From the NCBI GenBank assembly GCA_016873635.1, contig VGWJ01000006.1, forward strand, positions 3,102 through 67,101: a stretch of 64,000 nt of DNA, in the 5' to 3' direction. Positions 1-54,981 of this stretch are shown piece by piece. A program made the position numbers and the translations under genes. The number at the start of each line of letters is the position of its first letter. The stretch's first letter is position 1. The notes beneath the pieces were generated by a model that did not search any database, was not told the DNA's origin, and was given only the letters and a program-made list of their open reading frames with translations. This stretch comes from Lentisphaerota bacterium. GTDB lineage: Bacteria; Verrucomicrobiota; Kiritimatiellia; UBA8416; VGWJ01.

Positions 1-3000
1 CGCTCCTGCTCGTCCTCGTGCAGGATGCGCCGCTGATCGAGCTCCTGCGTGGCGCGCTCCTGCTCTTCGCTCAGGGACAGCTGTTCCTGGCGGAGTTGCT
101 CGACCTGCAGGGCGAGCTCGTCCTCGCGCTGGCGGTTGCGGGCGCGCTCCTCTTCGGCCATGGATCTCTGCTGCTCGAGCTCCTGGGTGGCTTCCTCCAG
201 GCTCAGGGCGACGCCGCGGTGCTCGTCCTGCAGCTGGCTGAGGCGCGCGGCGAAGTCGGCCCGCTCCTGTTCGCCGCGCTGGCGCGTTTCGGAGGCCATG
301 GCCCGCTCCTGATCGAATTCGCGCCTGAGTTGATCGTAGCGGTCCTGCGCGTCCCGCAGGGCCTTCTCGTACGCGGCGAGCTTTTCCTCCGCGGTCTGTC
401 GCCGCTGCGCTTCGTCCTCGACCTGCGTGCGCGCGGAGGTGACCGCGTCTTCCCGCTGGGCGATGCGCTCGCGCTCCTCTTCGATCTGGCGGCGGGCCTG
501 CGCCAGCTCCTGCTCGCGCTTCCGGCGCAGCTTCTGCTCTTCGTCGAACAGCTTTCTCTGCCGGCCCAGTTCGTCGGCCTGCTGCTGCGCGCGCGTGCGT
601 TCGGTCTGGAAAATCCTGCGGTCTTCGTCGACCTTGACGTTGAGCGCGCGGTACCGCTCCTGGGTCTGTTCCATGGCCTTCTGGAAATCATCCTCGCGCC
701 GGGTGAGCTCCTGCTGCGCCGTTTCGTAGAGCTTCCGCAGCTCGGCCAGCTCCTGGTCCTTCTGCCGGAGGAGGGCCTCGGACGCCTCGACGCGCTCGGC
801 GCGCTGCGCCAGGTTCTCCTGCAGCGCCCGGTAGTCGGCTTGCGCCTGCGCGATGCGGTTCTCGGCTTCCGCCTGGCGCTCGGCCAGTTGCGCGCGCAGC
901 GCCTCGGCGGCCTCGGTCTGGCGGGCGGCCTGCTGCCGTGCGCCGTCGATCTCGGCCTGCAGCGACTGGAGCTTCTGCTCCGCCTGCTCGAGCCGATGCC
1001 GCGCCAGTCGCTCCTGCTCCGTCGACGTCTTGTCGAGTTCGGCGCTGAGCGTCTTCTGCTCGTCCAGCTCCGCGCGCGCCCTCCCGAGCTGCGCCTGCAT
1101 GTCCTCGCGCTCGCGCTGCAGGCGCGCGACGTGTTCGTTGAGCGCCTTTTCCCTGGTCTGGACGTTTTCCTCGGCCGAGGCATACAGCTCGGTCAGACGG
1201 GTCAGCTCGCGGCGTTCCTGGTCGAGGGCGAGGTGCAGTTCCTGCACCGTCTTGCGGCCCTCTTCAAGCTGCTCTTCGAGATAGGTCTTCTCGTTGCGCA
1301 GGCCCTCGATCTCGTCGCTCAGCGAGCTTTCGCGCTGGCGGCTGTCCCACTCGATCTGGTCCAGCCTGGCCGTGGTCTCGGCGCAGCGGCGCTGCAGCTC
1401 GTCGATGCGCGACTCGGCGGCGGCGTCGCGCGCGCGTCCTTCCTGGGCGGCCTGTTCGGCGGCGGCGCGCTGCTCGGCGAGATCCTCCTCGCGGCGCCGC
1501 AGCTCTTCGCGCGCGTCGTCCCGCAGCTTGGTCATTTCCTCGAGCTCGAGCTCCCTGTCGCCCAGGCGGCGCGTAAGCTCGCGGCACTCGTCCTGGACCT
1601 GGTCGAGGCGCTGCGCCAGCTCGTTGTCGGTCTTCTGCGCCCGCTCCTTCAGTTCGGCGACCACCGCGCGCTCCTGCCCCAGCTCCCTTTCCAGGGCGGC
1701 GGCGCGCGCGGCGCGCTGGTCGCGATCGGCGGCGAGCGCGCGCAGGCGCGCGCCGAGCTCGCCCTCCTTCTCGCTGCCGATGGCCATGGCGTCGTCGCGT
1801 TCGCGGCGCGCCAGATCCAGCTCGGCCTCCAGTTCGCCGATCTTCTCCAGCGCGGCCTTGCGGCGCTCGTAGAGCTTGCGGTGTTCCTCGAAATCGGTGC
1901 CGACAAGGCCTTGCAGGTCGAGTATGCGGTCCTGGAACGCCTTTTCGCGTTCGGCGAACGTCCGGCGCAGGCCCTCGAAAGCCTCGCGCTCGCGATCGAG
2001 ATCGGCGCCCAGGCGTTCGACCTCCTCGGCAAGCACGTGCTTGATGTGCTCGGTATGCGTCAGGCGCTCGGCTTCCAGCTCGCTGCTGCGCTGGAGGATG
2101 ACGTCGTAGCGGGCGCGCTCATCGCGGAGGTCGGCGCGCAAACCGTCCAGGGCCTTTGCCGCGCGCTGGCCCTGCGCCTGCAGGCCGTCAAGACGTCCGG
2201 CCAGGTCGCCCCGGCGCTCCTCGTCGCGTTTCGCGTCTGCGTCGGAAGCGGCGCGCAGGGCGGCCGCATGCGCCCTCGCCCCCGCGACTTCCTCAAGGGC
2301 CCGGCCGGCCGCCTGGCGCATGTCGCGGATGACCTCGCGCAGTCCCTGCTCCCGGGCGTGGCTTTCGTTGCGTATGCGCGCGAACTCGGTGATGCGCCGC
2401 TGGAGATCCTCTTCGGCGGCGCGCAGGCGCGCCGCGGCTTCGGTGGCCTTGCGCTCAAGCTCGGACGCCTGCCGCTTCATGTCGCCGACGCGAGTCTCGG
2501 TCTCCCGCGCCTGCGACTCCGTCCGGGCTCTCTCGGCTTCAAGCTCCGCGCGCGCGCGGTTGAGCTCTTCGGTGGCGCCGGCCAGCGCGGCCTTGAGCTG
2601 TTCGATGCGGGCGCTGAGGTCGCGGGCCTGCGCTTCGGCGTCGGCTCTCTCGGCCTCGAGCCGGCCGCGCGTCGCGCTCAGGTCTTCTACCGTCCCGGCC
2701 AGCGCGCGGTCCAGCTCCTCGATTCGCGCGTTGAGGTCGCGGGCCTGCGCTTCGGCGCGGTTCTTTTCGGTTTCGAGCTGCGCGCGGGCGTCCTCGCGTT
2801 CCTTTGTGGCGTCGGCGAGCGCGGCGTTGAGCTGTTCGATGCGGGCGTTGAGGTCGCGGGCCTGCGCTTCGGCGCGGTTCTTTTCGTCCTCGATCTGCTT
2901 CCTGATGCCGCTCAGATCGTCCTTGCTGCCGGCGAGCGCGCGGTTGAGCTGTTCGATCTGCGCGGCCCGGGCCGTGCTCTGGCGCTCGGCTTCGGTCAGC

Positions 3001-4013
3001 TTGGACGCCGTTTCCTGCGCCGAGCGTTCGAGTTCCGCGATCCGGTCGCGCATGGAGGTGAAGCGCGACTCCGTCTCCACCGCCATTCGCTCGCGGCCGG
3101 AGCCCATCGTCTCGATCTCGCGGCGCGCGGCAAGGAGGGCCTGCGTGGCCTGGTCGGCGTTCCGCCGGAGGGTATCGATTTCGCGGCGCAGCTCGTTCTC
3201 GCGTGTCCGGCTGCGTTCCTGCGCCTGCAAGCCGCTGGCCCGCTCGTCGCGCAGGGCTTTGCGGGCGCGGTCCAGGCGCGCGGCCGCGTCGGCCGCGCGG
3301 GACGCGAGGTCGTCGGCGGCGCGGCTCAGTCCGGCGAGTCGCTCGCCGTCGCCGCGTTTCGCGGCCGCCTGCTGCGCGCGTTCGGCCGCCAGGCGCTCGC
3401 GCGTCTGATCCAGCTCCTTCTCCATGGCGGCGGCGCCGGAGGAGATATCCTGGATGCGGCGCTGCAGGTCATGCTCGCGCGTGCGGCTCTCGGTCTGCAG
3501 CGCGTCAAGCCGTCGCGCGCGTTCCTGGAGGTCCTTCTCCGTCTCGCGCAGGCGGCCGGCCGCCTCGGCGGCCTGTCTTTCCAGCTCCGTCATCCTTTCG
3601 AGATTCTTCTTCAGCGCGGCCATGTCCTCGCCGGCGGGCGCCACGCCGAGAATGACCGCCTTCCGGGCGCCGACGGTGGTTTGCTCGCCGGTTTCCGCGT
3701 TGCGCAGGGGCGCGTCTTCGGTGATGGTCCCTTCCACCACGAGGTCGGCCAGGGCGCGGATGTTAAGCGGGCCGTACGGGGTTCCGTCGGCCAGGGTGAC
3801 CGTCCAGACCATGCGGAGTTCCCTGAGGTTTTCGACGGGAACCCACTTGCGATTGTCGGCGGAAACCTCGTTTCCGGGCGCAATGCGGCCCTGCTCGGCC
3901 CAGGCGATGAGGTCTTTGAGAGGGGCGGGTCCGAACACGGAACCGTCGTCGATCTTGAGGTACCACTGGTCGGCCGGGCCGGCCTTGTCTGTCGGTTTCA
4001 CTGGTTCGGGCAT
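1..4013 (-). CDS. Large coiled-coil protein, C-terminus beyond window. N-terminus has two tandem GYF-like/DUF4339 domains (WYLKIDDGSVFGPAPLKDLIAWAEQGRI... and MVWTVTLADGTPYGPLNIRALADLV...), followed by >1200 aa of E/R/A/Q/L-rich heptad-like coiled coil.
   Basis: I translated the reverse complement myself. It is open from the ATG at 4013..4011 (MPEPVKPTDKAGPADQWYLK...) through position 1 with no stop, and the composition is a typical coiled coil. The same-register + ORF 18..4073 is >30% Leu with almost no E/K, so it is the antisense shadow. The gene is absent from the ORF track, presumably because it has no stop inside the window. Confidence 0.7.
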   Translation of the reverse strand, partial: MPEPVKPTDKAGPADQWYLKIDDGSVFGPAPLKDLIAWAEQGRIAPGNEVSADNRKWVPVENLRELRMVWTVTLADGTPYGPLNIRALADLVVEGTITEDAPLRNAETGEQTTVGARKAVILGVAPAGEDMAALKKNLERMTELERQAAEAAGRLRETEKDLQERARRLDALQTESRTREHDLQRRIQDISSGAAAMEKELDQTRERLAAERAQQAAAKRGDGERLAGLSRAADDLASRAADAAARLDRARKALRDERASGLQAQERSRTRENELRREIDTLRRNADQATQALLAARREIETMGSGRERMAVETESRFTSMRDRIAELERSAQETASKLTEAERQSTARAAQIEQLNRALAGSKDDLSGIRKQIEDEKNRAEAQARDLNARIEQLNAALADATKEREDARAQLETEKNRAEAQARDLNARIEELDRALAGTVEDLSATRGRLEAERADAEAQARDLSARIEQLKAALAGATEELNRARAELEAERARTESQARETETRVGDMKRQASELERKATEAAARLRAAEEDLQRRITEFARIRNESHAREQGLREVIRDMRQAAGRALEEVAGARAHAAALRAASDADAKRDEERRGDLAGRLDGLQAQGQRAAKALDGLRADLRDERARYDVILQRSSELEAERLTHTEHIKHVLAEEVERLGADLDREREAFEGLRRTFAEREKAFQDRILDLQGLVGTDFEEHRKLYERRKAALEKIGELEAELDLARRERDDAMAIGSEKEGELGARLRALAADRDQRAARAAALERELGQERAVVAELKERAQKTDNELAQRLDQVQDECRELTRRLGDRELELEEMTKLRDDAREELRRREEDLAEQRAAAEQAAQEGRARDAAAESRIDELQRRCAETTARLDQIEWDSRQRESSLSDEIEGLRNEKTYLEEQLEEGRKTVQELHLALDQERRELTRLTELYASAEENVQTREKALNEHVARLQREREDMQAQLGRARAELDEQKTLSAELDKTSTEQERLARHRLEQAEQKLQSLQAEIDGARQQAARQTEAAEALRAQLAERQAEAENRIAQAQADYRALQENLAQRAERVEASEALLRQKDQELAELRKLYETAQQELTRREDDFQKAMEQTQERYRALNVKVDEDRRIFQTERTRAQQQADELGRQRKLFDEEQKLRRKREQELAQARRQIEEERERIAQREDAVTSARTQVEDEAQRRQTAEEKLAAYEKALRDAQDRYDQLRREFDQERAMASETRQRGEQERADFAARLSQLQDEHRGVALSLEEATQELEQQRSMAEEERARNRQREDELALQVEQLRQEQLSLSEEQERATQELDQRRILHEDEQE
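2581..2970 (-). repeat. Intragenic direct tandem repeats, 3-4 copies with a ~117-120 bp period, inside the coiled-coil gene. They encode repeated ~39-aa units (...KNRAEAQARDLNARIEQLNAALA...).
   Basis: Near-identical DNA blocks containing gagctgttcgatgcgggcg(c/t)tgaggtcgcgggcctgcgcttcggcg at ~2581, ~2698, ~2812 and a partial one at ~2929. Confidence 0.6.
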
Positions 4014-4097
4014 GCCACACCTCGTTGTTGCGAGCGTCTGCGCCACGGCGCCGGGGGCGGAGGGCCGTCATGATTCCGCGCCACTCAAGTACACGGT

Positions 4098-4400
4098 TCA
4101 AGGAGTGTCAAGCTGTTTTGCCATGCGGAAGTCATCCATCACGAATCCCTTCCCGATGTCCCGGACCGGTTCGCCGGTCACGGCGAACCCCAGGCGGCGG
4201 TAGAAAGCGATGGAGCCGGCGTCATGGCGGTTGACTGTCAGCCACAATTCCCGGATGCCCAGGCCGGTGCGGAGCTCTTCAACGAAGGCGCTCACGGCCG
4301 CGGCGAGCCGTTGCCGTTGCGCCGTTCCCAGGACCGCCGCTCGCGCGGCGGGTTGCGGCAGGGCTGGCGGTTCGCGGCGACGTACACGCTTTCCTCGCCC
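4098..4400 (-). pseudogene. GNAT-family N-acetyltransferase-like C-terminal region (motif A/B-like ...LRTGLGIRELWLTVNRHDAGSIAFYRRLGFAVTGEP...). Probably a fragment or remnant: its ORF 4098..4745 would overlap the 3' end of dnaE by several hundred bp.
   Basis: The last ~70-95 aa of minus ORF 4098..4745 have a clear GNAT motif-B signature (N..A..Y..LGF). The N-terminal 120 aa are Arg/Pro-rich junk and overlap the well-conserved dnaE C-terminus. Confidence 0.3.
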
Positions 4401-7400
4401 AGCGCGTGCTGCAGGCGCGCGATCAGCTCTTCCGACGGCGTGACCCGCATGCTCTCGTCGGCATCGAGAAAAACCTTCTCCCCCGACGGAAACAGCAGGC
4501 AGATGCCCACCGGGACGTTGCCCGGGTGCACGCGGAGCATTTCCCGCACGGTTGCGAGCCTCTGCTCGTCGAGGCCGGCCGCGGGGATGTGCAGGCTGAT
4601 GCGTTTGGCGAACAGCCGCGGCGCTTCGGACAGGGGGTAGATCTCGGCCGCGACGAGGCGCGGGGTATCCTCGCGCCTGGAGATTTCGCCGCACACCATC
4701 ACGGCGCTCTCGGGGACCAGCGCGGCGCCGTACTGGCGGTAGCATTCGGGGAAGACCAGGACTTCCATCGAGCCCTCCATGTCCTCCAGCGTGACCACGG
4801 CCATGGGCTCCTTCTTCTTGGTCATGCGCCTGGCGAGCTGGGCGACGATGCCGCCCACGCGCGTGGAGGCGCGGTCGTCCAGGGCGGCCGCGCCGGGGAT
4901 GTCGGCCAGGCGGTAGCGCATGAGAAGCGGCGCGTGCTCGGCGAGGGGGTGGCCGCTGAGATACATGCCCAGGAGCTCTTTCTCCCCCGCGAGGAGCTGG
5001 CTCTGCGGCCAGGGCGGGCGGTCGGGCAGGCCGGCGTCGACGCCGCGGTCCGGGCTGTCGGCGGCGAGCAGGTCGAAAAGCCGGCCCTGGCCCGTTTCCC
5101 GGTCGCGGACCGTCGCGCTCGCCCGCGCCATCGCGAATTCGATGCCGTTGAAGACCTTGGCCCGGTGCGCATCCAGCGAATCCATGGCCCCGCAGCGGGC
5201 GAGGCTTTCGATGGCCTTGCGGTTGACGAGCTGGCTGTCCAGGCGCGTGCAGAAATCCACGAGGCCGGCGTAGGGGCCGCCGCGCTGCCGCTCGCGCGCG
5301 ACCGCCTCGGCGGCGCCCGCCCCCACGTTCTTGACGCCGGCCAGCCCGAAGCGCACGGCGCTTTCCGACGGCGTGAAGCGCACGCCGCTGGCGTTCACGT
5401 CCGGGGGCAGCACGGCCAGGCCCATGGCCTGGGCTTCGGCAATGAATACGGGGATCTTGTCGGAATTGCCGATTTCGCTGGAAAGCAGCGCGGCCATGAA
5501 CTCGGACGGGAAATTCGCCTTCAGGTAGGCCGTCTGATAGGCGATCACGGCGTAGCCGGTGCTGTGGGCCTTGTTGAAGCCGTAGCCGGCGAACGATTCC
5601 ATGTTGTCGAAGATGCGGCCCGCCAGGGCCTTGGGAATCCGGTTGGCCTTCTCGCAGCCGGCCACGAACTTGGCGCGCTGCTGCCGCATGACTTCCGCCT
5701 TCTTCTTGCCCATGGCGCGGCGCAGGATGTCGGCCTCGCCCAGGGAATAGCCGGCCAGGACGTTGGCGGCCCGCTGCACCTGCTCCTGGTAGACCATCAC
5801 GCCGTACGTTTCCTTGAGGATCGGCTCGAGCAGGGGGTGGTCGTAGGCGATCGCGGCTTTCCCGCTCTTGCGCTCGATGTAGGCGGGAAGCATCTCCATG
5901 GGCCCCGGCCGGTAGAGGGCGATCATGGCGATGAGGTCCTCGACGCAGTTGATCCCGATGCGCCGGATCAGGTCGCGCATGCCCGTGCTTTCAAGCTGGA
6001 ACACGCCGACGGTGTCGCCGCGGTTCAGCAGGTCGTAGGTGGGCCGGTCGTCGAGCGGCAGGTTGTCGATGTCGACGGTCAGGCCCCTGGTCTCGCGCGC
6101 CAGCGCCACGGATTCCTGGATGACGTCGAGCGTCTTGAGCCCGAGGAAGTCCATCTTGAGCAGCCCGATCTCGCCCAGCGGCTCCATGGAAAACTGCGTA
6201 ACCGGCTCGCCGTCCTTGTCGCGGGCCAGCGGGATGATCTCCACGAGGGGTTTCTCGCCGATGACCACGCCCGCGGCGTGCGTGCCCGCGTTGCGGTAGA
6301 GCCCCTCCAGGGAGAGGCCCAGGTCCAGGATGCGGCGGCAATCGTCATCCGTCTCGTAGGCCTTGCGCAGCTCGGGGTTCAGGTCCAGGGCGCGCGGCAG
6401 AGTCATCTTGGGGTCTTCGGGCACCATCTTGGAGAGCTGGTCGCACTTGCCGTAGGGGATCTCGAGCACACGGCCGACGTCGCGGATGACCATCTTGGCG
6501 CCGAGCGAGCCGAAGGTGATGATCTGGGCCACGTTCTCGCGGCCGTACTTGCCCTTGACGTAGTCGATGACTTCCCCGCGGCGGGCCTGGCAGAAGTCGA
6601 TATCGAAGTCCGGCGGTGAGACGCGTTCGGGGTTGAGGAAGCGCTCGAAGATGAGCCCGTAGCGCAGGGGGTCGATGGCCACGATGCCCAGCGCGTAGGC
6701 CAGCAGGCTGCCGGCGCCGGAGCCGCGGCCGGGCCCCACGGGGATGCCGGCGTTGCGCGCCCAGTGCACGAAGTCCCAGACCACCAGGTAGTAGTTGATG
6801 TAGCCGGTCTTCTCGATCACGGCCAGCTCGTGCCGGAAGCGCTCGACGATCTCGCGCTCGCGCGCGTCGCGCGGCCGGTCGCAGTTCTCCACGCCGTACC
6901 TGGCGCGGATGCCTTCGCGGCACAGCCGCGTGAGATATTCCTTCTGGGTGAGGCCGTCCGGAGCGTGGTAGGCCGGGAAGTGCGGCCGGCCGAATTCAAG
7001 CTCGACATTGCAGCGCTCGGCGATGTCCGCCGTGCGGTCCAGGGCCTCGGGAACGTCGCCGAAGAGCCGCTCCATCTCGGCGCGGCTCTTCATGTAGAAC
7101 TGGTCGGTCTGGTAGCGCATGCGCTTGGGATCGCTCATCACGGTCTGGGTCTGCAGGCAGAGCAGCACCTCGTGGGCGGCGGCGTGTTCCTTTTCGAGGT
7201 AGTGCACGTCGTTGGTGGCCACCAGCGGCAGCCCGGTCCGGCGCGACAGCTCCACGGACAGCTTGTTCACCTGCCGCTGCTCGCGGATGCCGTGATCCTG
7301 GATCTCGAGGTAGAAGTTGTCCTTGCCCAGGATGTCCGCGTATGCGCCGGCGGCCTGCGCGGCGCGGGGCATGTCGCTGTCGAGCAGCCGCGACGCGACT

Positions 7401-7861
7401 TCGCCGTGCAGGCAGGACGACAGCCCGATCAGGCCCCCGGCGTGATCGGCGAGGATCTGTTTGTCGATGCGCGGCTTGTAGTAGAAGCCTTCGAGGTGCG
7501 CGGCGCTGACGAGTTTGATCAGATTATGGTAGCCGCGGTCGTCGGCGGCCAGGAGCACAAGGTGATAGTTGGAAGGCTTGCGGTCCTCGGCCCGGCGTTC
7601 GTGGCGGCTGCCCTCGGCCACGTAGACCTCGCAGCCGATTATGGGGCGCAGGCCGTGGGCGCGGGCCTCGCCGTAGAAGTCCACCACGCCGTACATGACC
7701 CCGTGATCGGTGATCGCCACGGCGGACATGTCGCTGGCCCGCGCCTTTTCCATTACCTGGGCCGGACGGCACGCGCCGTCAAGAAGGCTGTAGCACGTGT
7801 GGAGATGCAGATGGACGAACGGCTTGCTCACGGTGGGGCAGTGTAGCCGAACGCCCGGCAT
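4292..7861 (-). CDS. dnaE: DNA polymerase III alpha subunit DnaE (PHP domain HLHLHTCYSLLDGA, polymerase core, OB fold).
   Basis: 1189-aa product with canonical DnaE motifs throughout. Start is the ATG at 7861 (MPGVRLHCPTVSKPFVHLHLHT) or the GTG at 7831. The longer ORF to 8038 is an upstream extension. Confidence 0.9.
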   Translation of the reverse strand: MPGVRLHCPTVSKPFVHLHLHTCYSLLDGACRPAQVMEKARASDMSAVAITDHGVMYGVVDFYGEARAHGLRPIIGCEVYVAEGSRHERRAEDRKPSNYHLVLLAADDRGYHNLIKLVSAAHLEGFYYKPRIDKQILADHAGGLIGLSSCLHGEVASRLLDSDMPRAAQAAGAYADILGKDNFYLEIQDHGIREQRQVNKLSVELSRRTGLPLVATNDVHYLEKEHAAAHEVLLCLQTQTVMSDPKRMRYQTDQFYMKSRAEMERLFGDVPEALDRTADIAERCNVELEFGRPHFPAYHAPDGLTQKEYLTRLCREGIRARYGVENCDRPRDAREREIVERFRHELAVIEKTGYINYYLVVWDFVHWARNAGIPVGPGRGSGAGSLLAYALGIVAIDPLRYGLIFERFLNPERVSPPDFDIDFCQARRGEVIDYVKGKYGRENVAQIITFGSLGAKMVIRDVGRVLEIPYGKCDQLSKMVPEDPKMTLPRALDLNPELRKAYETDDDCRRILDLGLSLEGLYRNAGTHAAGVVIGEKPLVEIIPLARDKDGEPVTQFSMEPLGEIGLLKMDFLGLKTLDVIQESVALARETRGLTVDIDNLPLDDRPTYDLLNRGDTVGVFQLESTGMRDLIRRIGINCVEDLIAMIALYRPGPMEMLPAYIERKSGKAAIAYDHPLLEPILKETYGVMVYQEQVQRAANVLAGYSLGEADILRRAMGKKKAEVMRQQRAKFVAGCEKANRIPKALAGRIFDNMESFAGYGFNKAHSTGYAVIAYQTAYLKANFPSEFMAALLSSEIGNSDKIPVFIAEAQAMGLAVLPPDVNASGVRFTPSESAVRFGLAGVKNVGAGAAEAVARERQRGGPYAGLVDFCTRLDSQLVNRKAIESLARCGAMDSLDAHRAKVFNGIEFAMARASATVRDRETGQGRLFDLLAADSPDRGVDAGLPDRPPWPQSQLLAGEKELLGMYLSGHPLAEHAPLLMRYRLADIPGAAALDDRASTRVGGIVAQLARRMTKKKEPMAVVTLEDMEGSMEVLVFPECYRQYGAALVPESAVMVCGEISRREDTPRLVAAEIYPLSEAPRLFAKRISLHIPAAGLDEQRLATVREMLRVHPGNVPVGICLLFPSGEKVFLDADESMRVTPSEELIARLQHALGEESVYVAANRQPCRNPPRERRSWERRNGNGSPRP

Positions 7862-8030
7862 CGAACAAGAAATCGATCCGCGCCCCTCGCGAGGAACGAA
7901 GGCCGGAATGAGAATTGCCGTCTCTGTGCTTGGCAGAAGCGCGCGCCGCGGCCTATATTCGCTGAAACGCCCGCGACGGGCAGAGGTGCGTTTGAGAACG
8001 GCACATACGCTGCGCAGACGGCCGCGACGG

Positions 8031-8861
8031 ATGGTCATCGTCCCGTTCGCGCTGGCCGCGTGCCTTTCGGCGGCCGCGGGGGAGGTGGACGTCGGGCTCG
8101 AGCTGGAATACGACGGCTATCTGCAGTGCGAGCCGGTGATGGTCTTCCTCAAGCTGCACAACGACACGGCCGCTCCGCTGGTGATCGCCCCTGACCCCGG
8201 CGCCGGCGCCGACACCGCCGCGGTCACCTTCGAGGTCAAACGCTACACGCGCAACAGGACCGTGGATATCAAGCCGTCCGGCGCGGCGCCGGTGGTGAAA
8301 CGCGTCACGGTGCATCCCAACGGCGACCAGGAAATCCTGGCGGACATTTCCATGTTTTACGGGCTGGCAACGCTCGGGCGCTACAGCGTAACGGCCCGCG
8401 TGGAGTGGTTCGGCCGCCGCTACCAGTCGCCGGTGCGGAGCTTCGAGGTGGTGCGCGGGATCGACGTCGCGCACGCCGCGCGCACGGTGCCGGAATACCC
8501 GGATCGCCTGCGCGAATATGACCTGCGCTACTGGACGCGCCGCGGCGCGGAATATCTGTTTCTGACGGTTTCCGAAGAAGACGGGAAGATCAACTGCGGC
8601 GTGTTCCCGCTGGGCCGCATCGTGCGCATGGGCAAGCCCGTTTTGCGCGTCGACCGCGACGGCAACGTGGTCGTCGTGCACCAGTCCGGCCGGAACTGCC
8701 TGACGCGCTCGGCGTTCACCTCCACGCGGGAGGGGGTGCGGTTCGTGGACCAGACTTATCACCTGCCGGACGGCGGGCCCTATCCGTTCGTGCGCGGCGC
8801 GGAAGGCGTTCCCGCCGGCGGCACCAACGGGGCGTCCGCCAAGCCCCCGGCCGGCGGGTGA
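8031..8861 (+). CDS. Hypothetical secreted protein with N-terminal signal peptide (MVIVPFALAACLSAAAG).
   Basis: Internal ATG at 8031 of ORF 7797..8861. Product has diverse, non-low-complexity composition and is divergent from dnaE. Confidence 0.55.
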   Translation: MVIVPFALAACLSAAAGEVDVGLELEYDGYLQCEPVMVFLKLHNDTAAPLVIAPDPGAGADTAAVTFEVKRYTRNRTVDIKPSGAAPVVKRVTVHPNGDQEILADISMFYGLATLGRYSVTARVEWFGRRYQSPVRSFEVVRGIDVAHAARTVPEYPDRLREYDLRYWTRRGAEYLFLTVSEEDGKINCGVFPLGRIVRMGKPVLRVDRDGNVVVVHQSGRNCLTRSAFTSTREGVRFVDQTYHLPDGGPYPFVRGAEGVPAGGTNGASAKPPAGG

Positions 8862-9032
8862 GAGGCGGCGCCTTCGGCCCGGTCAGGTTTTGCCTGCCGA
8901 TTCTCAGGCGCGTCCGCCCGCGCCCGGCTGCCGTCGCGCCGAAGCGGCGCCATGGCGCGGCGCGAAGGCGGAAGGTCGCGGGCCACCTCGCTTCTTCCCC
9001 TGCGAAACCGGCGGGCCGCCGGGTTCCGTAGT

Positions 9033-9202
9033 GGGTCAGTTACGCGGTGGAAACACGCCGGCAGGGCGCGGCGTGCCGCCTTCGCCCGGAGGCTCCGGCG
9101 CGCCAAGCCGGCCGCGCCGCGGCGGACCGGGCTTGCCCGCCATAGCCCGCAGGGCGACGGCGGGACGGTCCGCCCTACCTCGCCTCCCTGCATGACTGAC
9201 CG
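9033..9202. mobile_element. MITE-like GC-rich repeat, copy 1 (~170 bp), with imperfect terminal inverted repeats (GGTCAGTTACGCGGTG ... CTGCATGACTGACC). Carries a ~35-bp insertion relative to copy 2.
   Basis: Matches 17621..17757 at >90% identity over ~135 bp. Lies in the intergenic region just upstream of tRNA-Leu. The ends are inverted complements and there are internal near-palindromes (CCGGAGGCTCCGG). Confidence 0.5.
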
Positions 9203-9274
9203 GTTGCCGGGTTCCTTTCATTCCCGTTGACCGTCTGCCGGGCATGCACTATGCTTTCTTCGGATGGTGTAACC

Positions 9275-9359
9275 GTGCACCCGTGGTGAAACTGGTATAC
9301 ACGCAAGGTTCAGGTCCTTGTGGCCGCTAAGGCCGTGGGGGTTCGAATCCCTCCGGGTG
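9275..9359 (+). tRNA. tRNA-Leu, anticodon CAG. Class II tRNA with a long variable arm, 85 nt, CCA not encoded.
   Basis: Hand-folded: acceptor GCACCCG/CGGGTGC; 3-bp D-stem GTG/CAC with a GG-containing loop; anticodon stem CAAGG/CCTTG with loop TTCAGGT (U33, CAG, G37); variable arm GGCC-loop-GGCC; T-arm GGGGG-TTCGAAT-CCCTC. Confidence 0.8.
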
Positions 9360-9431
9360 CACCCGCCTCCGCCCCGGCGGCGGCTGTGGCGGACGGATCC
9401 GGCGCGTTGCCCGAAGCGGACGAGGTGTCTG

Positions 9432-14489: not shown

Positions 14490-15626
14490 ATGAGCGCCAT
14501 CGACGCCGTCTTCGTCCACTGCGCGGACCTGGACCGGCTTCACTACCCGGCGGATTGCCCGTTCAAGACCTCGCGCGCCGGACGCACCCGCGACGCGGTT
14601 GCCGCCATGGGGCTGCTGAACGGCCCGCGCCGCAAGGTCGTCGAGCCGCGGCCGCTGACCCGGGCGGAACTCGAGGCCTTTCACGAACCGCGCTATCTCG
14701 ACGCCCTCCGGGCCGCGGCCGGCGGAGAACTGGGGCCGGAGGGCTTCGCGATGGGCCTCGGCACTCCGGACTGCCCCGTCTTTCCCGACATGTACGACTA
14801 CCCGGCCCTGGCCTGCGGCGCCACGGTCGAGGGCGCGCGCCTGCTCCTGGAAGGGGCGGCGCGCGTCGCGTTCAACCCTTCGGGCGGGTATCACCACGCC
14901 ATGCCCGACCGCGCGGGCGGCTTCTGCTACCTGAACGATATCGTGTTCGGGTGCCGCGCGCTGGCCGCGGCGGGGCGGCGGGTAGCGTTCCTGGACATCG
15001 ACGTGCACCATTGCGACGGCGTGCAGGCGGCCTTCTACGACCGGGCCGACGTCATGACCATTTCCCTGCACGAGACCGGGCACAGCCTCTTTCCGGGCAC
15101 GGGCTTCGAGGACCACATCGGCGAAGGCGCCGGGCGCGGCTACAGCGTGAACGTGCCGCTGCCGCCGGGCACGGACGACAGGGCCTACCTGGCCGCTTTC
15201 CACGCCGTGGCCTCGCCGCTCATGGAGGCTTTCGCGCCGGACGCGGTTGTCGTGGAGGCGGGCATGGACGCCTTGAGCGGCGATCCGCTGGCGCACCTGC
15301 GCCTTACCAACAACGCCTACGCCGAGATTGCGGAATGGGCCGTGGCCTTCGGGCGGCCGCTGCTGGTCACGGGCGGCGGCGGCTACAACGCCGACAACAC
15401 CGTGCGCGGCTGGTCGCTGCTGTGGAGCATCCTCTGCGGGGCGGGCGCCGACAACGAGATGAGCCTCGGGCTGGGCGGCGTCATGCTGGAAGGCACGGAA
15501 TGGCACGGCGGCCTGCGGGACCGGCCCATGCTCTCGCGCCCGGGAAGGATTCCGGGAATTGACGACGCGATCGCGCGGACCGTGGAGCGCGTGAAACGCC
15601 TGGTGTTTCCGTTGCACGGGATTTGA
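14490..15626 (+). CDS. Histone deacetylase-family protein (AcuC/acetoin-utilization-like deacetylase).
   Basis: HDAC signature GFCYLNDIV, DIDVHHCDGVQ, SLHE..H.FPGTG. Confidence 0.85.
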   Translation: MSAIDAVFVHCADLDRLHYPADCPFKTSRAGRTRDAVAAMGLLNGPRRKVVEPRPLTRAELEAFHEPRYLDALRAAAGGELGPEGFAMGLGTPDCPVFPDMYDYPALACGATVEGARLLLEGAARVAFNPSGGYHHAMPDRAGGFCYLNDIVFGCRALAAAGRRVAFLDIDVHHCDGVQAAFYDRADVMTISLHETGHSLFPGTGFEDHIGEGAGRGYSVNVPLPPGTDDRAYLAAFHAVASPLMEAFAPDAVVVEAGMDALSGDPLAHLRLTNNAYAEIAEWAVAFGRPLLVTGGGGYNADNTVRGWSLLWSILCGAGADNEMSLGLGGVMLEGTEWHGGLRDRPMLSRPGRIPGIDDAIARTVERVKRLVFPLHGI

Positions 15627-48880: not shown

Positions 48881-50325
48881 GACAAAGCCCGCGGCTCCTC
48901 CTTCTCCACGACCACGCGGTTGCCGCGCGTCTCGACGACCACCACGGGGGCGCCGGCGTCAATGAAGTCGCCGCGGGACACGACGTTCAGACGGCGCTCG
49001 CCGAAAACGGCGATGCCGGCGGGGCGCAGGGGGGTGTCGGCCCTGCCGCGCGCTCCGAGCAGGTCGGCCGGCGCGGCGGACGCGCTGAAGCCGGCCGCGG
49101 CGGTCTCGCTCGTCTCCAGGACCAGTCGCCGGAACAGCGTGGTCCGCGGAAGGAAACGCGACAGGACCAGCGCCGCGGCGATCAGGCCCGCCAGCGACCA
49201 GCCGACCGTCCGCATGGCGCGGTCGATCTGGATGTCCGGAAGGCGATAGACGGGCAGCCCGGGCGAGTGCTGCACCATCGCCATCAGCACCGCCAAGGCC
49301 ATCATCGCGATGCCCGCGCTGCCCACGAGACCGAAACCCGGTATGAAGAAGACCTCGACCAGCAGCAGGATCAGCCCCAGCGCGAAAAGAACCAGCTCGC
49401 CCATGCCGGCCAGGCCGGCCACGTGGTGGCCCCAGAACCAGATCGCAAGCAGGAGAATCCCCGCGATGCCCGGCAGCCCGAAGCCGGGCGTCTTGAACTC
49501 GACGTACAGGCCCAGCAGGCCGCCGATCAGCAGAAGGGCCGACAGCATCTCGATATAGCGGGCGATCTTCTCCGCGGGCGTGATGGTGATCGCGCGCAGT
49601 TCCGCTTCGCCGTGCCCGATGGCCTTCAGCAGGGCCGGCAGATCCTCCGCCGTTCCCTTCGAAAGCAGGGGCTCATCCCGGCCGTCGCGCGACACGACGC
49701 GCTCCGCCTCGACATTGGTCAGCGTGAGGAGCTGGCCGGCGGGGCTGATCACCTCGTCGCCGATCTTGTACTCCATCTCGCGCCGCACCATGGCTTCGGC
49801 GAGCAAGGGGTCGTGATGCTTGCGCTGCGCCGTGGAGCGGATCAGGCCCGCGACGTAGGAAACGGCCTTCTCCTGCATGGCCTCCGGCATCTCCTGGGCG
49901 CCGCCGAAAGGCGACACCATGATGGGCATGGCGTCGCCGATGCGGCTGCCCGGCGCCATGTAGATGCTGTCGGTGCCCATGGCGATGATCGCGCCGGCGG
50001 AGATGGCGTTGCGGTTGACGAAGGTGAAGGTGGGCACGCTTATGTTGGCGATGATGTCGATGATCTCTTCGGCGGCGTCCAGCCTTCCGCCGGGCGTATG
50101 CATGTCGAAGACGATGGCGCCGGCGCCTTGCGCCACCGCCTCGTTGACGCCGCGACGGATGACGTAGGTCAGCCCGCGCTCGATCATGTCGTGGACGGGC
50201 ACCACGTAGACCAGCCCGCGCGCGGACGCGGGCTCCGCCGCCGTCTCCTGCGCGGCGCCGTGCCGCGCGCAGAAAAGGAGGCCGAGCACGGCGCCGGCGA
50301 CGGAAATGACCAATCCCCTTTTCAT
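48877..50325 (-). CDS. NfeD-family membrane-bound ClpP-class serine protease, long form.
   Basis: ATG at 50325 (MKRGLVISVAGAVLGLL). ClpP-like N-domain, TM region, C-terminal OB fold. Confidence 0.8.
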   Translation of the reverse strand: MKRGLVISVAGAVLGLLFCARHGAAQETAAEPASARGLVYVVPVHDMIERGLTYVIRRGVNEAVAQGAGAIVFDMHTPGGRLDAAEEIIDIIANISVPTFTFVNRNAISAGAIIAMGTDSIYMAPGSRIGDAMPIMVSPFGGAQEMPEAMQEKAVSYVAGLIRSTAQRKHHDPLLAEAMVRREMEYKIGDEVISPAGQLLTLTNVEAERVVSRDGRDEPLLSKGTAEDLPALLKAIGHGEAELRAITITPAEKIARYIEMLSALLLIGGLLGLYVEFKTPGFGLPGIAGILLLAIWFWGHHVAGLAGMGELVLFALGLILLLVEVFFIPGFGLVGSAGIAMMALAVLMAMVQHSPGLPVYRLPDIQIDRAMRTVGWSLAGLIAAALVLSRFLPRTTLFRRLVLETSETAAAGFSASAAPADLLGARGRADTPLRPAGIAVFGERRLNVVSRGDFIDAGAPVVVVETRGNRVVVEKEEPRALS

Positions 50326-50392: not shown

Positions 50393-50965
50393 TCACCAGT
50401 TTTCGGCCAGAATCTCGAAATGGGCGCGCGGATGCGCGCACGCCAGACACATTTCCGGAGCCTCGACGCCTTCGTGCAGGTAGCCGCAGTTGATGCAACG
50501 CCAGACCACCGGTTTCGCCTTCTTGAAGACCGTGCCCTGCTCGACGCCGCGGGCAAGGGCCAGAAAGCGTTTCTCGTGCTGCCGCTCCGCGACCGTTATG
50601 GCCTCGAACACGCGGGCCGCGGTCTCGAAGCCCTCTTCGCGGGCCGCGGCGGCGAACGACGGATACATCTCCGTCCACTCGTAGTGCTCGCCCGCGGCGC
50701 CGGCCTTGAGATTGTCGGCGGTGCCGCCGATGACGCCGAAAGGAAAGCTCGCGGCCACGTCAACTTCGCCGCCGTCCATGAGCTTGAAGAGGCGCTTGGC
50801 GTGTTCGCGTTCCTGGTTCGCGGTCTCCTCGAAGATATCGGCGATCTGGCGGTAGCCCTCCTTGCGGGCCTTGCCCGCGAAGAAGCTGTAGCGGTTGCGC
50901 GCCTGCGACTCGCCGGCAAAAGCGGTCATCAGGTTTCGCGCGGTCTTGCTGCCCTTGAGTTGCAT
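50393..50965 (-). CDS. rbr: Rubrerythrin (ferritin-like diiron domain plus C-terminal rubredoxin-like CxxC...CxxC).
   Basis: Motifs E..A..RY, EH.KRF, CINCGY...CLAC. Confidence 0.9.
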   Translation of the reverse strand: MQLKGSKTARNLMTAFAGESQARNRYSFFAGKARKEGYRQIADIFEETANQEREHAKRLFKLMDGGEVDVAASFPFGVIGGTADNLKAGAAGEHYEWTEMYPSFAAAAREEGFETAARVFEAITVAERQHEKRFLALARGVEQGTVFKKAKPVVWRCINCGYLHEGVEAPEMCLACAHPRAHFEILAENW

Positions 50966-51129: not shown

Positions 51130-54100
51130 TCAGACGGCGTCGAAGAGCGAAAGCTGCTCCTGCGGGCGGCGGGCGGCGCGGCGGCGCGTTTGCGAGCGTT
51201 CCAGGAGCTGTTCCTCGATAGCTTCAAGGAAGCGCGACGGATGCATCGACTGCGCCGCGCCGCGCCAGCGCCGGCGCCCGGCGTGGCAGAGATACAGGCG
51301 GTCGCGCGCGCGCGTCATGCCGACAAAGAACAGGCGCCGCTCCTCCTCCGCGGCCGTCGCGTCGTCGCCGTCGCCGGCGTGCTGCAGCGGCAGAACGCCG
51401 TCCTCGCAGCCGACGATGAACACGACCGCGAACTCAAGGCCCTTGGCGGAGTGCAGCGTGAGCAGCGAGACCGCGTCTGCCCGCGGATCCCAGAGGTCGC
51501 CGTCCACGCCGAGCGCCAGCTCGCGCCGGAACTGATCCAGGCTTCCGCAGCGCGCGGCGAGCGGCCGCAGGATTGCGGCCGCCGCGGCCGCCGCGGCGCG
51601 CCGGTCGTCGGGCATCGCCGCGGCGACGGCGTCGAGCCGCGCCGCCACGGAAAGCGGCTCCGGCGGCGCGGGCGCCGCGCTCTCCGCCGCGGCCATGGCC
51701 TCGACGATCGCGCGCACCAGCGGCGTCTCCAGCAGGGGCGCGTGGGTGCGGTGCTGGAACGGCATGCCGGAGCGCGCGAAAGCCTTCTGCAGCAGGGGCG
51801 CCTGCGCCTCGGTGCGGTAGAACACGGCAAAGTCGGCGAAGGAGAAGGCCGTCCGGCCGTCCGCGGCATCGGCGCGGCCGCTGTCCAGGGAAAAGAACGT
51901 CGCGCCGCCGATGAGGCGTTCCACGGTGTGAACCACGAACTCGGCCTCGGCTTCGTCCGTGGCGGCGCGGTGAAGGACGATTTTCGGCGGTCCCTCGAGC
52001 ACGGCGCGCAAGTCGCGGTTGCTGACGAGCGTGGCCGGGGCGATCGCCTGCAGGGCGGCGGCGACGATGGCGCGGCTGGAGCGGTAGTTGCGGGCCAGCG
52101 TCACGACGCGCGCCGCCGGGAAATCCCGCGTGAACCGCTGGAAGAAGCGCACGTCGCCGCCGCGGAAGCCGTAGATCGCCTGGTCGGGGTCGCCGATGGC
52201 GCACAGGTTGCCGTGCGGCGGCACGAGGCGCTTGATCAGGCGGTACTGGAGCGCGTCGATGTCCTGGTATTCGTCCACGCAGACCCACCGGTAGCGATCC
52301 CGGTAGGTGTCGGTCAGCGCGCGGCTCGCTTCGAGCAGGCGCAAGGGCATGAGGATCAGGTCGTCGAAGTCGACGCTGCCGGATTCGCGCAGGGCCCGCT
52401 CGTAGGCTTCGCGCGCCGCGGCGATCTCGGGGTCGGGAGGGGGGCGCGCCGCTTCGGGCGCATTGCCCGGGACCGCGCGGCGGGAGGCCGCGATCGCCCG
52501 CAGGAGGCGCGCGGCCTTGCGGCCGGAGGCGCCGGTGGCGGCCGCGACGAGCGCCAGTTGCTCGTGCGGCGCCAGGACGCGGGGCGGACGGGGCCAGCCC
52601 AGCGCCGCGGCGTTTTCGGCCAGGATGGCGCAGCCGAGCGCGTGGAACGTCATGACGGGCACCCGCGGGGCCTGCTGCGGTATGAGCCGGTCGAGGCGCG
52701 CGCGCATCTCGGCCGCGGCGCGGCGGGTGAACGTGACGGCCAGGCATCGCTCCGGCGGCACGTTCTGGTCCTGCACGAGGTAGGCGATGCGGTGCGTGAG
52801 GGTGCGGGTCTTGCCCGTGCCGGGGCCGGCCACGACCAACAGCGGACCCTTCACGACGCTGGCGGCGAGCCGCTGCTCGGGATCGAGACGGAAGAGGACG
52901 CCGAAAAGCTCGGGCCCGCTGGGCGGGGCAGGGGATTCGCGGACCGCCGCGTGGCGGGGGGGGAAAGCGGCGGGCGGGGGGCGGGAGGCGGCGGGCGGCG
53001 CGGGGCGGGGGGACGGCCTTGACGCCGGGGGCTCCGGGAGGCTGAAGAGCAGGGCGTGCCGCTGTTCGGGCTTGAGTTCGGACGGGTCGAAGACGCGAAT
53101 CGCGCCGTAGGCGCCGTCATACCCGGCGCGCCGGATGACGCGCCCGCTCCGCATGCGCTCGACGGCCTCGGCCAGGAGCGGCGACCCGATGCGGCGCAGG
53201 TCGTCGAGCGGGGCGCGTTCCAGCACGAACAGCTCGGGGCCAACGGCCGCGGCGAGGGCCTCGCGGGCGAGGCGCACCTGCTTCGACGCCGCGCCGACCC
53301 CGAAGATCTCGCCAAGGATTTCGTCCAGCGGTATCAGGCTGCGGAACGGCGCCGCGCCCGGGCGCCGCTCGCCCGCCGGCCGGTCGGCCAGTTCTTCGAC
53401 CCGGTGCATGACGCCGACCGTGACCGGCTTGCCGCACACCGGGCAGAGGCCGTTGCCGGCGCGGGTCTCGGCGGGGGTGAGGCGGACGTCGCACTTGCGG
53501 TGACCGTCGAGGTGGTATTTGCCTTCCTCGGGGAAGAACTCGACGGTGCCGCCGTAGCCTCTGCCCGTGGCGAGGGCGCGGCGCATGGCGTGGTAGTCCA
53601 CGCCGGTCTCGAACACGCAGGCTTCGCGCGCCAGCTTCTCCGGGGAATGCGCGTCGGAGTTCGAGACGAGACGGTAGCGGTCAAGCGCGGACAGGCGCCA
53701 GTTCATGGGCGGGTCGGAGGAGAGCCCGGTTTCCACGGCGAAGACCTGGCCGGCCATGTCCGCGTAGCAGTCGGCGATGCTGTCGAATCCGGACTTGGAT
53801 CCGAGCGCGGAGAACCACGGCGTCCAGACGTGGGCCGGGACCAGGAACGCGCCTTCGCCGGCCTGCAGAACGATTTCCAGGAGGTTGCGCGAATCCAGGC
53901 CGAGGATGGGCCTTCCGTCGGCGGCGATGTTGCCGATCCGCGCCAGCGGCGCGACGATGCGTTCGGCGATCTCCAGCGTGGGGGCGTAGACCAGGTGGTG
54001 GACCTTGCGGGTGCGGTCGTCCCTTTTGTAAATGGTGGAGATCTCCGCCTGGAGCATGAAGCGCACGGCGCGGCGGCAGGTCGGCGGCACCTGTTCCTGG

Positions 54101-54324
54101 ACGCGGCGGTCGAAAAGGTTGTTGAGGCGGAAGAGCCCCGGCTCGGCCGGCACGAGGTCGCGCCGGATTTCGCTCAGCCATCCCGGGTGCGTGAAGTCGC
54201 CGGTGCCCATGACGGCCAGGCCCTTGCGCAGTCCCCAGCGGGCGAGGTTGGGGAGGTCGCAGTCGCGGCTCGTGGCGCGCGAGAACCTGGAATGCACGTG
54301 CAGGTCGGCGTAGAAGGAGCTCAT
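51130..54324 (-). CDS. Fusion of an N-terminal PHP-domain (polymerase/histidinol-phosphatase) nuclease-like module with a zinc-ribbon (CPVCGKP) and a C-terminal UvrD/PcrA-type superfamily-1 helicase.
   Basis: ATG at 54324 (MSSFYADLHVHSRFS..., ...NSDAHSPEKL). Helicase motifs GPGTGKTRTL, VCVDEYQDID, NYRSSRAIV, HSAKGLEFAVVFI, VGMTRARDRLYL. Confidence 0.85.
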   Translation of the reverse strand: MSSFYADLHVHSRFSRATSRDCDLPNLARWGLRKGLAVMGTGDFTHPGWLSEIRRDLVPAEPGLFRLNNLFDRRVQEQVPPTCRRAVRFMLQAEISTIYKRDDRTRKVHHLVYAPTLEIAERIVAPLARIGNIAADGRPILGLDSRNLLEIVLQAGEGAFLVPAHVWTPWFSALGSKSGFDSIADCYADMAGQVFAVETGLSSDPPMNWRLSALDRYRLVSNSDAHSPEKLAREACVFETGVDYHAMRRALATGRGYGGTVEFFPEEGKYHLDGHRKCDVRLTPAETRAGNGLCPVCGKPVTVGVMHRVEELADRPAGERRPGAAPFRSLIPLDEILGEIFGVGAASKQVRLAREALAAAVGPELFVLERAPLDDLRRIGSPLLAEAVERMRSGRVIRRAGYDGAYGAIRVFDPSELKPEQRHALLFSLPEPPASRPSPRPAPPAASRPPPAAFPPRHAAVRESPAPPSGPELFGVLFRLDPEQRLAASVVKGPLLVVAGPGTGKTRTLTHRIAYLVQDQNVPPERCLAVTFTRRAAAEMRARLDRLIPQQAPRVPVMTFHALGCAILAENAAALGWPRPPRVLAPHEQLALVAAATGASGRKAARLLRAIAASRRAVPGNAPEAARPPPDPEIAAAREAYERALRESGSVDFDDLILMPLRLLEASRALTDTYRDRYRWVCVDEYQDIDALQYRLIKRLVPPHGNLCAIGDPDQAIYGFRGGDVRFFQRFTRDFPAARVVTLARNYRSSRAIVAAALQAIAPATLVSNRDLRAVLEGPPKIVLHRAATDEAEAEFVVHTVERLIGGATFFSLDSGRADAADGRTAFSFADFAVFYRTEAQAPLLQKAFARSGMPFQHRTHAPLLETPLVRAIVEAMAAAESAAPAPPEPLSVAARLDAVAAAMPDDRRAAAAAAAAILRPLAARCGSLDQFRRELALGVDGDLWDPRADAVSLLTLHSAKGLEFAVVFIVGCEDGVLPLQHAGDGDDATAAEEERRLFFVGMTRARDRLYLCHAGRRRWRGAAQSMHPSRFLEAIEEQLLERSQTRRRAARRPQEQLSLFDAV

Positions 54325-54669: not shown

Positions 54670-54981
54670 CTACCAGCGGCGATCGTTGTCGCCGCCGCCG
54701 CCGCCGCGACGGCCGCCGAAGTCGTTTCCTTCGCGACGCGGCTTCGGCTGGGACTCGTTCACGCGCAGCCGGCGCCCCATGAAATCGGCGCCGTTGGTCT
54801 TTTCGATCGCGCTGAGGGCCTCGTTGCGCTCGGGCATTTCAACGAACCCGAATCCCCTCGACTGACCGGAGAAGCGGTCCATGACTACGCGGGCCGAGGC
54901 GACTTGGCCGTAGCTCTCAAAGAGCGTCCGCAGGTCCGCGTCGCTCGCGCTGTAGGGGAGGTTGCCAACATAGATGTCCAT
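54670..54981 (-). CDS. RRM-domain glycine-rich RNA-binding protein.
   Basis: RNP2 IYVGNL and RNP1 RGFGFVEM motifs, plus a Gly/Arg-rich tail. Confidence 0.85.
   Translation of the reverse strand: MDIYVGNLPYSASDADLRTLFESYGQVASARVVMDRFSGQSRGFGFVEMPERNEALSAIEKTNGADFMGRRLRVNESQPKPRREGNDFGGRRGGGGGDNDRRW

Follow-up and report, generated by a model that had tools for sequence, protein, structure and literature searches.

A 64,000-nucleotide stretch of contig VGWJ01000006.1 (assembly GCA_016873635.1) of a Lentisphaerota bacterium, referred to below as the window, contains a minus-strand gene in which an Endonuclease Q (EndoQ) module is fused to a UvrD-like helicase. The gene belongs to a known, catalogued, biochemically uncharacterised family of long-form bacterial EndoQs and probably encodes a chromosomal DNA-repair enzyme of an incise-and-unwind type. 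Judging by alignment and structure prediction, the N-terminus is one complete EndoQ unit comprising PHP-type, zinc-binding and C-terminal helical domains. The remainder is assigned, on the same grounds, to UvrD/PcrA-like helicases of superfamily 1A (SF1A), predicted 3′→5′ motors, with intact motifs. The original prediction for this gene had described a PHP nuclease-like module and a zinc ribbon fused to a UvrD-type helicase. The gene lies where it was placed, and the PHP histidine motifs, the CPVCGKP motif and the helicase motifs quoted for it are all present, far beyond chance. The nuclease–helicase fusion with a zinc-binding element is confirmed, and DNA repair, one of the functions proposed for it, is the best reading.

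Residues 6–413 align end to end with residues 5–384 of Pyrococcus furiosus EndoQ (PfuEndoQ; 5ZB8, 7K30) in a phmmer search of PDB sequences (E = 1.7e-45). NCBIfam model TIGR00375 matches the N-terminus with E = 8e-45 and 153.8 bits, and PF27218 (MJ0043_C) is recorded for the public copy of the protein. An AlphaFold2 model built from 50 homologues has a mean predicted local distance difference test score (pLDDT) of 84 and a predicted template modelling score (pTM) of 0.58. In Foldseek comparisons its N-terminal part gives template modelling scores (TMt) of 0.86–0.87 against 5ZB8 and 0.84 against 7K30, the complex of EndoQ with deoxyuridine (dU) DNA; none of the PDB entries found by Foldseek with this model spans both the EndoQ and the helicase parts. 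The N-terminal motifs noticed earlier were located as DLHVHSRFS (aa 7–15), SNSDAHS (aa 221–227) and CPVCGKP (aa 294–300). The Pfam PHP profile PF02811, to which the N-terminus had been expected to score, gave no match on the whole protein (E ≤ 1) or on aa 1–470 alone (E ≤ 10), an outcome that the original prediction had named as refuting it; as a positive control, it scored 188 bits on the canonical PHP domain of DnaE in the same window (4292–8038, minus). Since PF02811 is silent, it is homology to the crystallised EndoQ alone that sustains the PHP assignment of the N-terminus. Both the PHP module and the zinc ribbon of the original prediction are present, but they are parts of a single EndoQ unit and not separate elements.

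Functional residues of PfuEndoQ have been established experimentally. Two catalytic zinc ions are held by H8, H10, E76, H84, H139 and D193, and R114 and H195 are also essential; the pocket for the deaminated base is formed by T142, W144, E167, G169, L170, S171 and N191; K243 and Y244 contact DNA, and a four-cysteine (C4) zinc site consists of C249, C252, C268 and C271 (PMC5961232). Conservation of the equivalent positions was counted in 120 full-length fused relatives; family statistics were calculated with the public copy of the gene (P0001) and not with the window copy. The metal ligands (H9, H11, E94, H109, H165 and D224), the two further essential residues (R138 and H226) and the whole base pocket (T168, W170, E198, G200, L201, S202 and N222) are each conserved in 120/120 relatives, as is the DNA-contacting K269, with Y270 present in 119. 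The zinc site has the pattern H-C-C-C (H275-C278-C294-C297), the first ligand being His in all 120 relatives as opposed to Cys in the archaeal C4 site; the stand-alone EndoQ of Brevibacillus, which is of the Bacillus type, retains C4. By this comparison, the module has all the sequence hallmarks of a lesion-specific EndoQ that is active, and nuclease activity is predicted because the residues needed in PfuEndoQ mutagenesis are invariant in the fused relatives.

Pfam recognised the helicase part alone, by PF00580 (UvrD-helicase; aa 480–736, E = 7.4e-67, 226 bits) and PF13361 (UvrD_C; E = 2.8e-30, 106 bits), both over the cut-off. Besides the Walker A and DEYQD motifs, it contains GDPDQAIYGFRG (aa 711–722), YRS (747–749), LHSAKGLEF (957–965) and VGMTRAR (1001–1007). 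The family as a whole preserves motifs Q, I, Ia, II, III, IV, V and VI, so the description of a complete UvrD/PcrA-type SF1 helicase was accurate. The nearest solved structures are those of PcrA, UvrD, UvrD1 and Rep (TMt 0.67–0.76 for the helicase part of the model; identity 27–31%). The NCBIfam equivalog models all score below their cut-offs, with 390 of 911 bits for PcrA, 297 of 1144 for UvrD and 332 of 951 for Rep; by this measure, the helicase is not an orthologue of PcrA, UvrD or Rep.

The alignment to PcrA covers PcrA residues 9–379 and 547–660 of 724. Residues 380–546 of PcrA, which contain its 2B sub-domain, are represented by a shortened substitute. Because nothing beyond PcrA residue 660 is aligned, the C-terminal Tudor-like domain with which PcrA and UvrD bind RNA polymerase is judged to be absent. 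The 2B domain of Rep is auto-inhibitory, and the cut-down 2B of the fusion suggests a differently regulated motor. A loop in domain 2A, IGG[AS]TFFSxDSGR (aa 804–823; 51856–51915, minus), with G806, G807, D814 and S815 invariant, has no counterpart in PcrA, and its pLDDT in the model is below 50.

The protein ends with a short motif, QLSLF, that exactly matches the bacterial β-clamp-binding consensus QL[S/D]LF. The pattern Q[LMR]xL[FL] is found in the last 14 residues of 179 of 240 full-length relatives, compared with 0.14% of other 14-residue windows; it forms the very C-terminus in 121 of the 240, and the looser Qxx[LMIV][FLM] is present in 209. Both the clamp consensus and a tabulation of EndoQ homologues from bacteria are given in PMC4858679 (Suppl. 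Fig. S1). In Thermococcales archaea, PCNA binds the C-terminal PCNA-interacting peptide (PIP) box of EndoQ and stimulates the enzyme 6–7-fold (PMC4858679). The QLSLF tail is therefore predicted to bind the β clamp. According to the original prediction, there were no obvious partner genes; none is conserved nearby, but the overlooked clamp motif supplies a candidate partner. The linker between the two modules varies from 46 to 135 aa across relatives. It contains an LLF[D/E]xP motif directly after the EndoQ module, at the place where short bacterial EndoQs have their C-terminal clamp motif; speculatively, LLF[D/E]xP may be vestigial or may touch the clamp at a second site.

Table 1. Location of the fusion gene, its assigned modules and motifs, and the adjoining genes in the window.
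Feature	Residues (aa)	Window position	Strand	Details
Long-form bacterial EndoQ/UvrD-like helicase fusion, whole coding sequence	1–1064	51130..54324	minus	1064 aa + stop; ATG start
EndoQ PHP-type catalytic domain	1–264	53533..54324	minus	aligned to PfuEndoQ residues 5–238
EndoQ zinc-binding domain	265–331	53332..53532	minus	predicted ligands H275, C278, C294, C297; K269 and Y270 at domain start
EndoQ C-terminal helical domain	332–413	53086..53331	minus	PF27218 MJ0043_C
Pro-rich disordered linker	414–478	52891..53085	minus	unconserved; pLDDT < 50 at aa 420–471
LLF[D/E]xP motif	425–430	53035-53052	minus	Q-less, near-invariant; L426 in 115/120 and F427 in 114/120 relatives
SF1A UvrD/PcrA-type helicase	479–1045	51190..52890	minus	Pfam, motifs, PDB matches
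Walker A, AGPGTGKT	499–506	52807-52830	minus	
DEYQD	684–688	52261-52275	minus	
Shortened 2B substitute	858–939	51508..51753	minus	about 82 aa for PcrA 380–546; partly Ala-rich, low-complexity; modelled as small helical bundle
QLSLF, predicted β-clamp-binding pentapeptide	1057–1061	51142..51156	minus	after basic tail aa 1046–1056
Rubrerythrin gene		50393..50965	minus	neighbour
RNA-recognition motif (RRM) protein gene		54670..54981	minus	neighbour

The best-named relatives are proteins from metagenome-assembled genomes (MAGs) of Kiritimatiellae and Verrucomicrobiota, with 57–59% identity. At least 120 database clusters have 54–61% identity to the fusion over 98–100% of its length. In a search with the EndoQ module among representatives of 50%-identity clusters, 3642 matches passed E ≤ 1e-3, of which 1070 also passed E ≤ 1e-30; the top 150 matches are almost all 1000–1200 aa long and nearly all fused to the helicase. 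A survey of distribution and gene neighbourhoods, proposed with the original prediction as a check, places the fusion in at least 600 species (the number matched by the two most conserved EndoQ peptides in GTDB contigs, with one genome per species) and in variable housekeeping neighbourhoods. The best 80 species matches include actinomycetes (Micromonospora, Salinispora, Saccharopolyspora, Streptomyces and Kutzneria; Actinomycetota), Myxococcota (Sorangium), Planctomycetota, Verrucomicrobiota, Acidobacteriota, Binatia, Gemmatimonadota, Chloroflexota, Alphaproteobacteria, KSB1, Melainabacteria and Endomicrobia. RefSeq names the short form ‘endonuclease Q family protein’ and the long forms merely ‘UvrD-helicase domain-containing protein’.

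These 80 species loci and four others, including the public contig carrying the gene itself, were compared as a set of 84. The helicase is in the same open reading frame (ORF) as EndoQ in 66 of the 84; the others end at a contig edge, are frameshifted or are stand-alone. Five loci encode a stand-alone EndoQ of about 440–525 aa with no helicase in the locus (L038, at 150–1391; L048, L050, L073 and L080, at 8001–9370). They come from Gemmatimonadota, Rhodospirillaceae, Luteolibacter, Limisphaerales and Endomicrobia, are 55–66% identical to the fused module, and represent either secondary loss of the helicase or the ancestral state. In seven further loci (L016, L043, L049, L053, L063, L075 and L083), several of them from long-read MAGs, the helicase continues in another frame after EndoQ; these breaks may be assembly frameshifts or pseudogenes.

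The surroundings of the gene are core-chromosomal. Genes for a rubrerythrin and an RRM protein adjoin it, as the original prediction had noted, and the window also contains DnaE, ClpC, Ddl, an NfeD/FloA operon, a Ser/Thr kinase, apgM and cysteine synthase. In 83 loci, all ORFs that encode 150 aa or more and lie no further than 6 kb from the gene were clustered. This revealed synteny at the family level only (moaA, clpC, fdhD and an AAA_16 protein), with neighbourhoods varying between phyla and no partner gene conserved across phyla. Searches of IMG/VR viral contigs and phage records gave no match to the fusion. The lone ‘plasmid’ match (L085; NZ_CP011075.1, 491551–498708) is on a chromosome-like 733-kb Brevibacillus replicon; it encodes a stand-alone EndoQ in the gene order nudix-endoQ-spoIIM-fur-xerD-deoB. 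Such a distribution and context are those of a repair gene passed on vertically and not of a defence-island gene.

Archaeal and Bacillus EndoQs flip uracil, hypoxanthine, xanthine or an apurinic/apyrimidinic (AP) site into the pocket and cut immediately 5′ of the lesion, leaving 3′-OH and 5′-phosphate ends; PfuEndoQ remains bound to the nicked product. UvrD displaces the incised strand in nucleotide excision repair (NER) and mismatch repair (MMR), moving 3′→5′ on the intact strand from the nick, and such nick-initiated strand removal by UvrD/PcrA provides a functional analogy for the helicase of the fusion. The models proposed for the steps following EndoQ incision in 2015 were strand displacement with Fen1 or ‘removal by helicase activity’ (PMC4357722, Fig. 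10). In the preferred reading, the EndoQ module would take up a deaminated base (uracil, hypoxanthine or xanthine) or an AP site by flipping it into the pocket, nick directly 5′ of the lesion and stay on the nicked product as PfuEndoQ does. The tethered helicase would then load at the nick and translocate 3′→5′ along the intact strand, peeling off the lesion-bearing 5′ end, and a polymerase, a flap nuclease or exonuclease and a ligase would resynthesise the patch. The outcome would be a one-polypeptide, ‘incise-and-unwind’ form of alternative excision or nucleotide incision repair. The QLSLF tail could tether the enzyme to the β clamp at or behind replication forks, in parallel with PCNA on archaeal EndoQ. 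It is also possible, with somewhat less than even chances, that the fusion is a self-sufficient, clamp-tethered machine whose helicase is licensed only by its own EndoQ nick, and that it represents the main bacterial form of EndoQ. If this were so, a glycosylase-independent route could be of major importance in preventing C→T and A→G transitions in high-GC lineages such as actinomycetes, myxobacteria and the Planctomycetes–Verrucomicrobia–Chlamydiae (PVC) group.

Several points weigh against the incise-and-unwind reading. The substrate range, the order of nick and helicase action, the translocated strand and clamp binding are inferred for the fusion. Identity to characterised EndoQs is about 30%, so the substrate range could differ, and H-C-C-C takes the place of C4 at the zinc site. 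The TIGR00375 score lies below the NCBI cut-off of 326.6 bits; in terms of sequence similarity, the fusion protein is best placed in a divergent clade of the EndoQ superfamily, and not in the clade on which TIGR00375 was trained. The AlphaFold2 model gives no confident geometry between the modules, given its pTM and the disordered linker. The stand-alone relatives show that the helicase is not obligatory for the function of the EndoQ module. No paper in the accessible literature assays a long-form EndoQ or describes an EndoQ–helicase fusion.

The strongest of the other explanations, which nevertheless has a rather low probability, concerns the same enzyme with the helicase acting before incision: it would scan DNA, clear proteins or expose single-stranded DNA lesions at forks. 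EndoQ is able to cleave single-stranded as well as double-stranded DNA (PMC6202378), the predicted clamp motif would put the enzyme at forks, the long flexible linker permits either order, and the truncated 2B may alter the handling of duplexes. On the other hand, retention of PfuEndoQ on the nicked product would offer a loading site for the helicase, and UvrD-family enzymes classically begin at nicks in MMR and NER.

It is improbable that the gene is simply the ordinary housekeeping UvrD/PcrA of this lineage, serving NER, MMR and replication restart with an accessory domain. PcrA, Rep and UvrD are indeed the top helicase models, synteny is kept within families, and no second UvrD-like gene was found in the 64-kb window or in the 8-kb flanks of the 84 loci, a search that did not cover whole genomes. 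The equivalog scores, however, are far below every cut-off, 2B is halved and the RNA polymerase-binding C-terminal domain is missing. Among the hosts, Streptomyces, Micromonospora and Sorangium are known to have separate UvrD/PcrA genes, and some close relatives of the EndoQ module lack the helicase altogether. The original prediction had foreseen a housekeeping helicase with conserved synteny as a possible outcome; the scores do not support it, and synteny is conserved only within families.

Still less probable is an anti-phage nuclease–helicase, directed at dU-containing or deaminase-edited phage DNA or resembling Gabija or Nhi systems; a stand-alone defence nuclease had been among the functions first suggested. 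GajB models of PADLOC match the helicase with up to 280 bits, and a review relays the suggestion of an antiviral role for Bacillus EndoQ (PMC8307549). These GajB scores, however, fall below that of PcrA (390 bits) and reflect no more than a general resemblance to UvrD. No GajA/OLD or other defence gene lies nearby, and the only matches in mobile elements amount to the chromosome-like replicon described above, with none in IMG/VR or phages. Proteins of replication and repair typically show such vertical synteny at the family level and carry a clamp-binding tail. The neighbouring genes are those for rubrerythrin, the RRM protein, the kinase and NfeD, and no partner gene is conserved across the 84 loci. 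The PADLOC matches (GajB and similarity to the DRT helicase) were rejected as evidence of defence, being generic and leaving the nuclease unmatched.

A processing machine for double-strand-break ends like AddAB, RecBCD or AdnAB, or a Cas3-like degrader, both functional parallels of the original prediction, is hardly credible: the architecture of nuclease plus SF1 helicase, weak partial AddA/RecB model matches and Foldseek matches to the AddAB/RecBCD helicase cores are all that favour it, but these matches are confined to the shared SF1 core (TMt 0.3–0.5, 15–22% identity) with AddA/RecB scores far below the cut-offs, Pfam finds no PD-(D/E)XK (RecB-type) or HD nuclease domain, the helicase is SF1A and not SF2, no cas genes adjoin it, and the nuclease is homologous over its full length to a lesion-specific nickase, with the base pocket intact.

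Long bacterial EndoQs have been listed before. About 35 homologues of 941–1244 aa, from hosts including Opitutaceae TAV5, Sorangium cellulosum, Saccharopolyspora spinosa, Desulfovibrio, Geobacter metallireducens and Rhodothermus, were catalogued beside short ones by Shiraishi et al. in 2016 (PMC4858679, Suppl. Fig. S1); the present gene is like them in length class, host groups and C-terminal QL[S/D]LF and shows no difference in kind. A later classification recognises three EndoQ families ‘based on the domain organization’, two of them bacterial (as stated in PMC5961232). Reviews up to 2021 term the bacterial distribution of EndoQ ‘limited’, and the literature describes it as restricted to ‘a few bacteria’. 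New beyond the accessible literature are the residue-level case for a predicted activity, the H-C-C-C variant, the truncated 2B with the missing C-terminal domain, the LLF motif and the scale of the distribution.

The fusion shares with PfuEndoQ (5ZB8; DNA complexes 7K30–7K33) the three domains, the metal ligands, the R114 and H195 equivalents, the pocket and the K243/Y244 contacts. It differs in having only about 30% identity, His as the first zinc ligand, a 17-residue insertion after the first β-strands and other loops, and the linker, the helicase and the predicted β-clamp motif in place of the PIP box. The EndoQ of Bacillus pumilus and B. subtilis (YqxK type) is likewise bacterial and chromosomal and has the same catalytic motifs, and its nicking of dU, deoxyinosine and AP sites has been demonstrated (PMC5961232, PMC6202378). 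Unlike the fusion, it stands alone, has about 390 aa and no helicase, and keeps C4 at its zinc site; the two are only 29% identical. UvrD, PcrA and Rep (2IS1, 1PJR and 1UAA) have the same 1A, 1B and 2A cores and all motifs; the fusion differs from them in its 2B of about 82 versus about 167 aa, with no GIG motif to be seen in the translation, in lacking the Tudor-like domain and in having the extra IGG[AS]TFFSxDSGR loop. The combination of helicase and nuclease recalls AddAB, RecBCD, AdnAB, Cas3 and GajB, and GajB, AddA and RecB share the SF1 core. The nucleases of those systems, however, are of the PD-(D/E)XK, HD or TOPRIM type as opposed to the PHP-type EndoQ of the fusion, their substrates are DNA ends or R-loops and not single damaged bases, and their partner genes are absent here.

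If the coupling of the two activities is true, one polypeptide would perform lesion recognition, incision and strand removal, answering the question of what follows the EndoQ nick, and would offer a tractable system for the licensing of SF1A helicases at nicks. The hosts include the well-studied and genetically tractable Streptomyces, Micromonospora, Salinispora, Saccharopolyspora and Sorangium. Genes now named ‘UvrD-helicase domain-containing protein’ could receive a more precise annotation. To a specialist in DNA repair the architecture would come as no surprise, yet it is a widespread and testable candidate for the step after EndoQ incision.

The gene is a single ORF, the stop-to-stop frame of which extends upstream to an in-frame TTG at 54525. 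This TTG is not the start codon, because the homologues all open with M-x-FYADLH and the public gene call also has 1064 aa. The window is 99.9% identical at the DNA level to a public 115-kb JGI metagenome contig (sample 3300020222), and the gene differs from the copy on that contig at two bases. One change is synonymous; the other, at window position 51822 in minus-strand codon 835, gives TTC (Phe) as opposed to CTC (Leu) in near-identical public contigs. The position lies in the motif-IV region (DFAVLYRT) and is occupied by Leu in 50 aligned relatives, the public copy included. F835 is a conservative change of no demonstrated consequence, for which either strain variation or an error in the sequence could be responsible.

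Other observations concern individual loci and the rest of the window. On a planctomycete-like contig (L003; 11297–11749, minus), a convergent gene directly following the fusion encodes a 150-aa, TadA-like protein with a cytidine/deoxycytidylate-deaminase fold; it matches dCMP_cyt_deam_1 and MafB19-deam, was not seen in the other loci and is probably a coincidence. The NfeD membrane-domain gene of the public contig (L001) contains a perfect 126-nt tandem duplication (2.0 copies; 14796–15049), and the window has a single copy of the unit at 49402–49529. Running off the start of the window (3–4067, minus) is a gene for a coiled-coil protein, rich in Glu, Gln and Arg and longer than 1355 aa, with an N-terminal GYF_2 domain. 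A spurious Leu-rich ORF of 1351 aa (18..4073, plus) lies antisense to it, and the coiled-coil gene accounts for the strong AT skew of about −0.4 over the first 4 kb.

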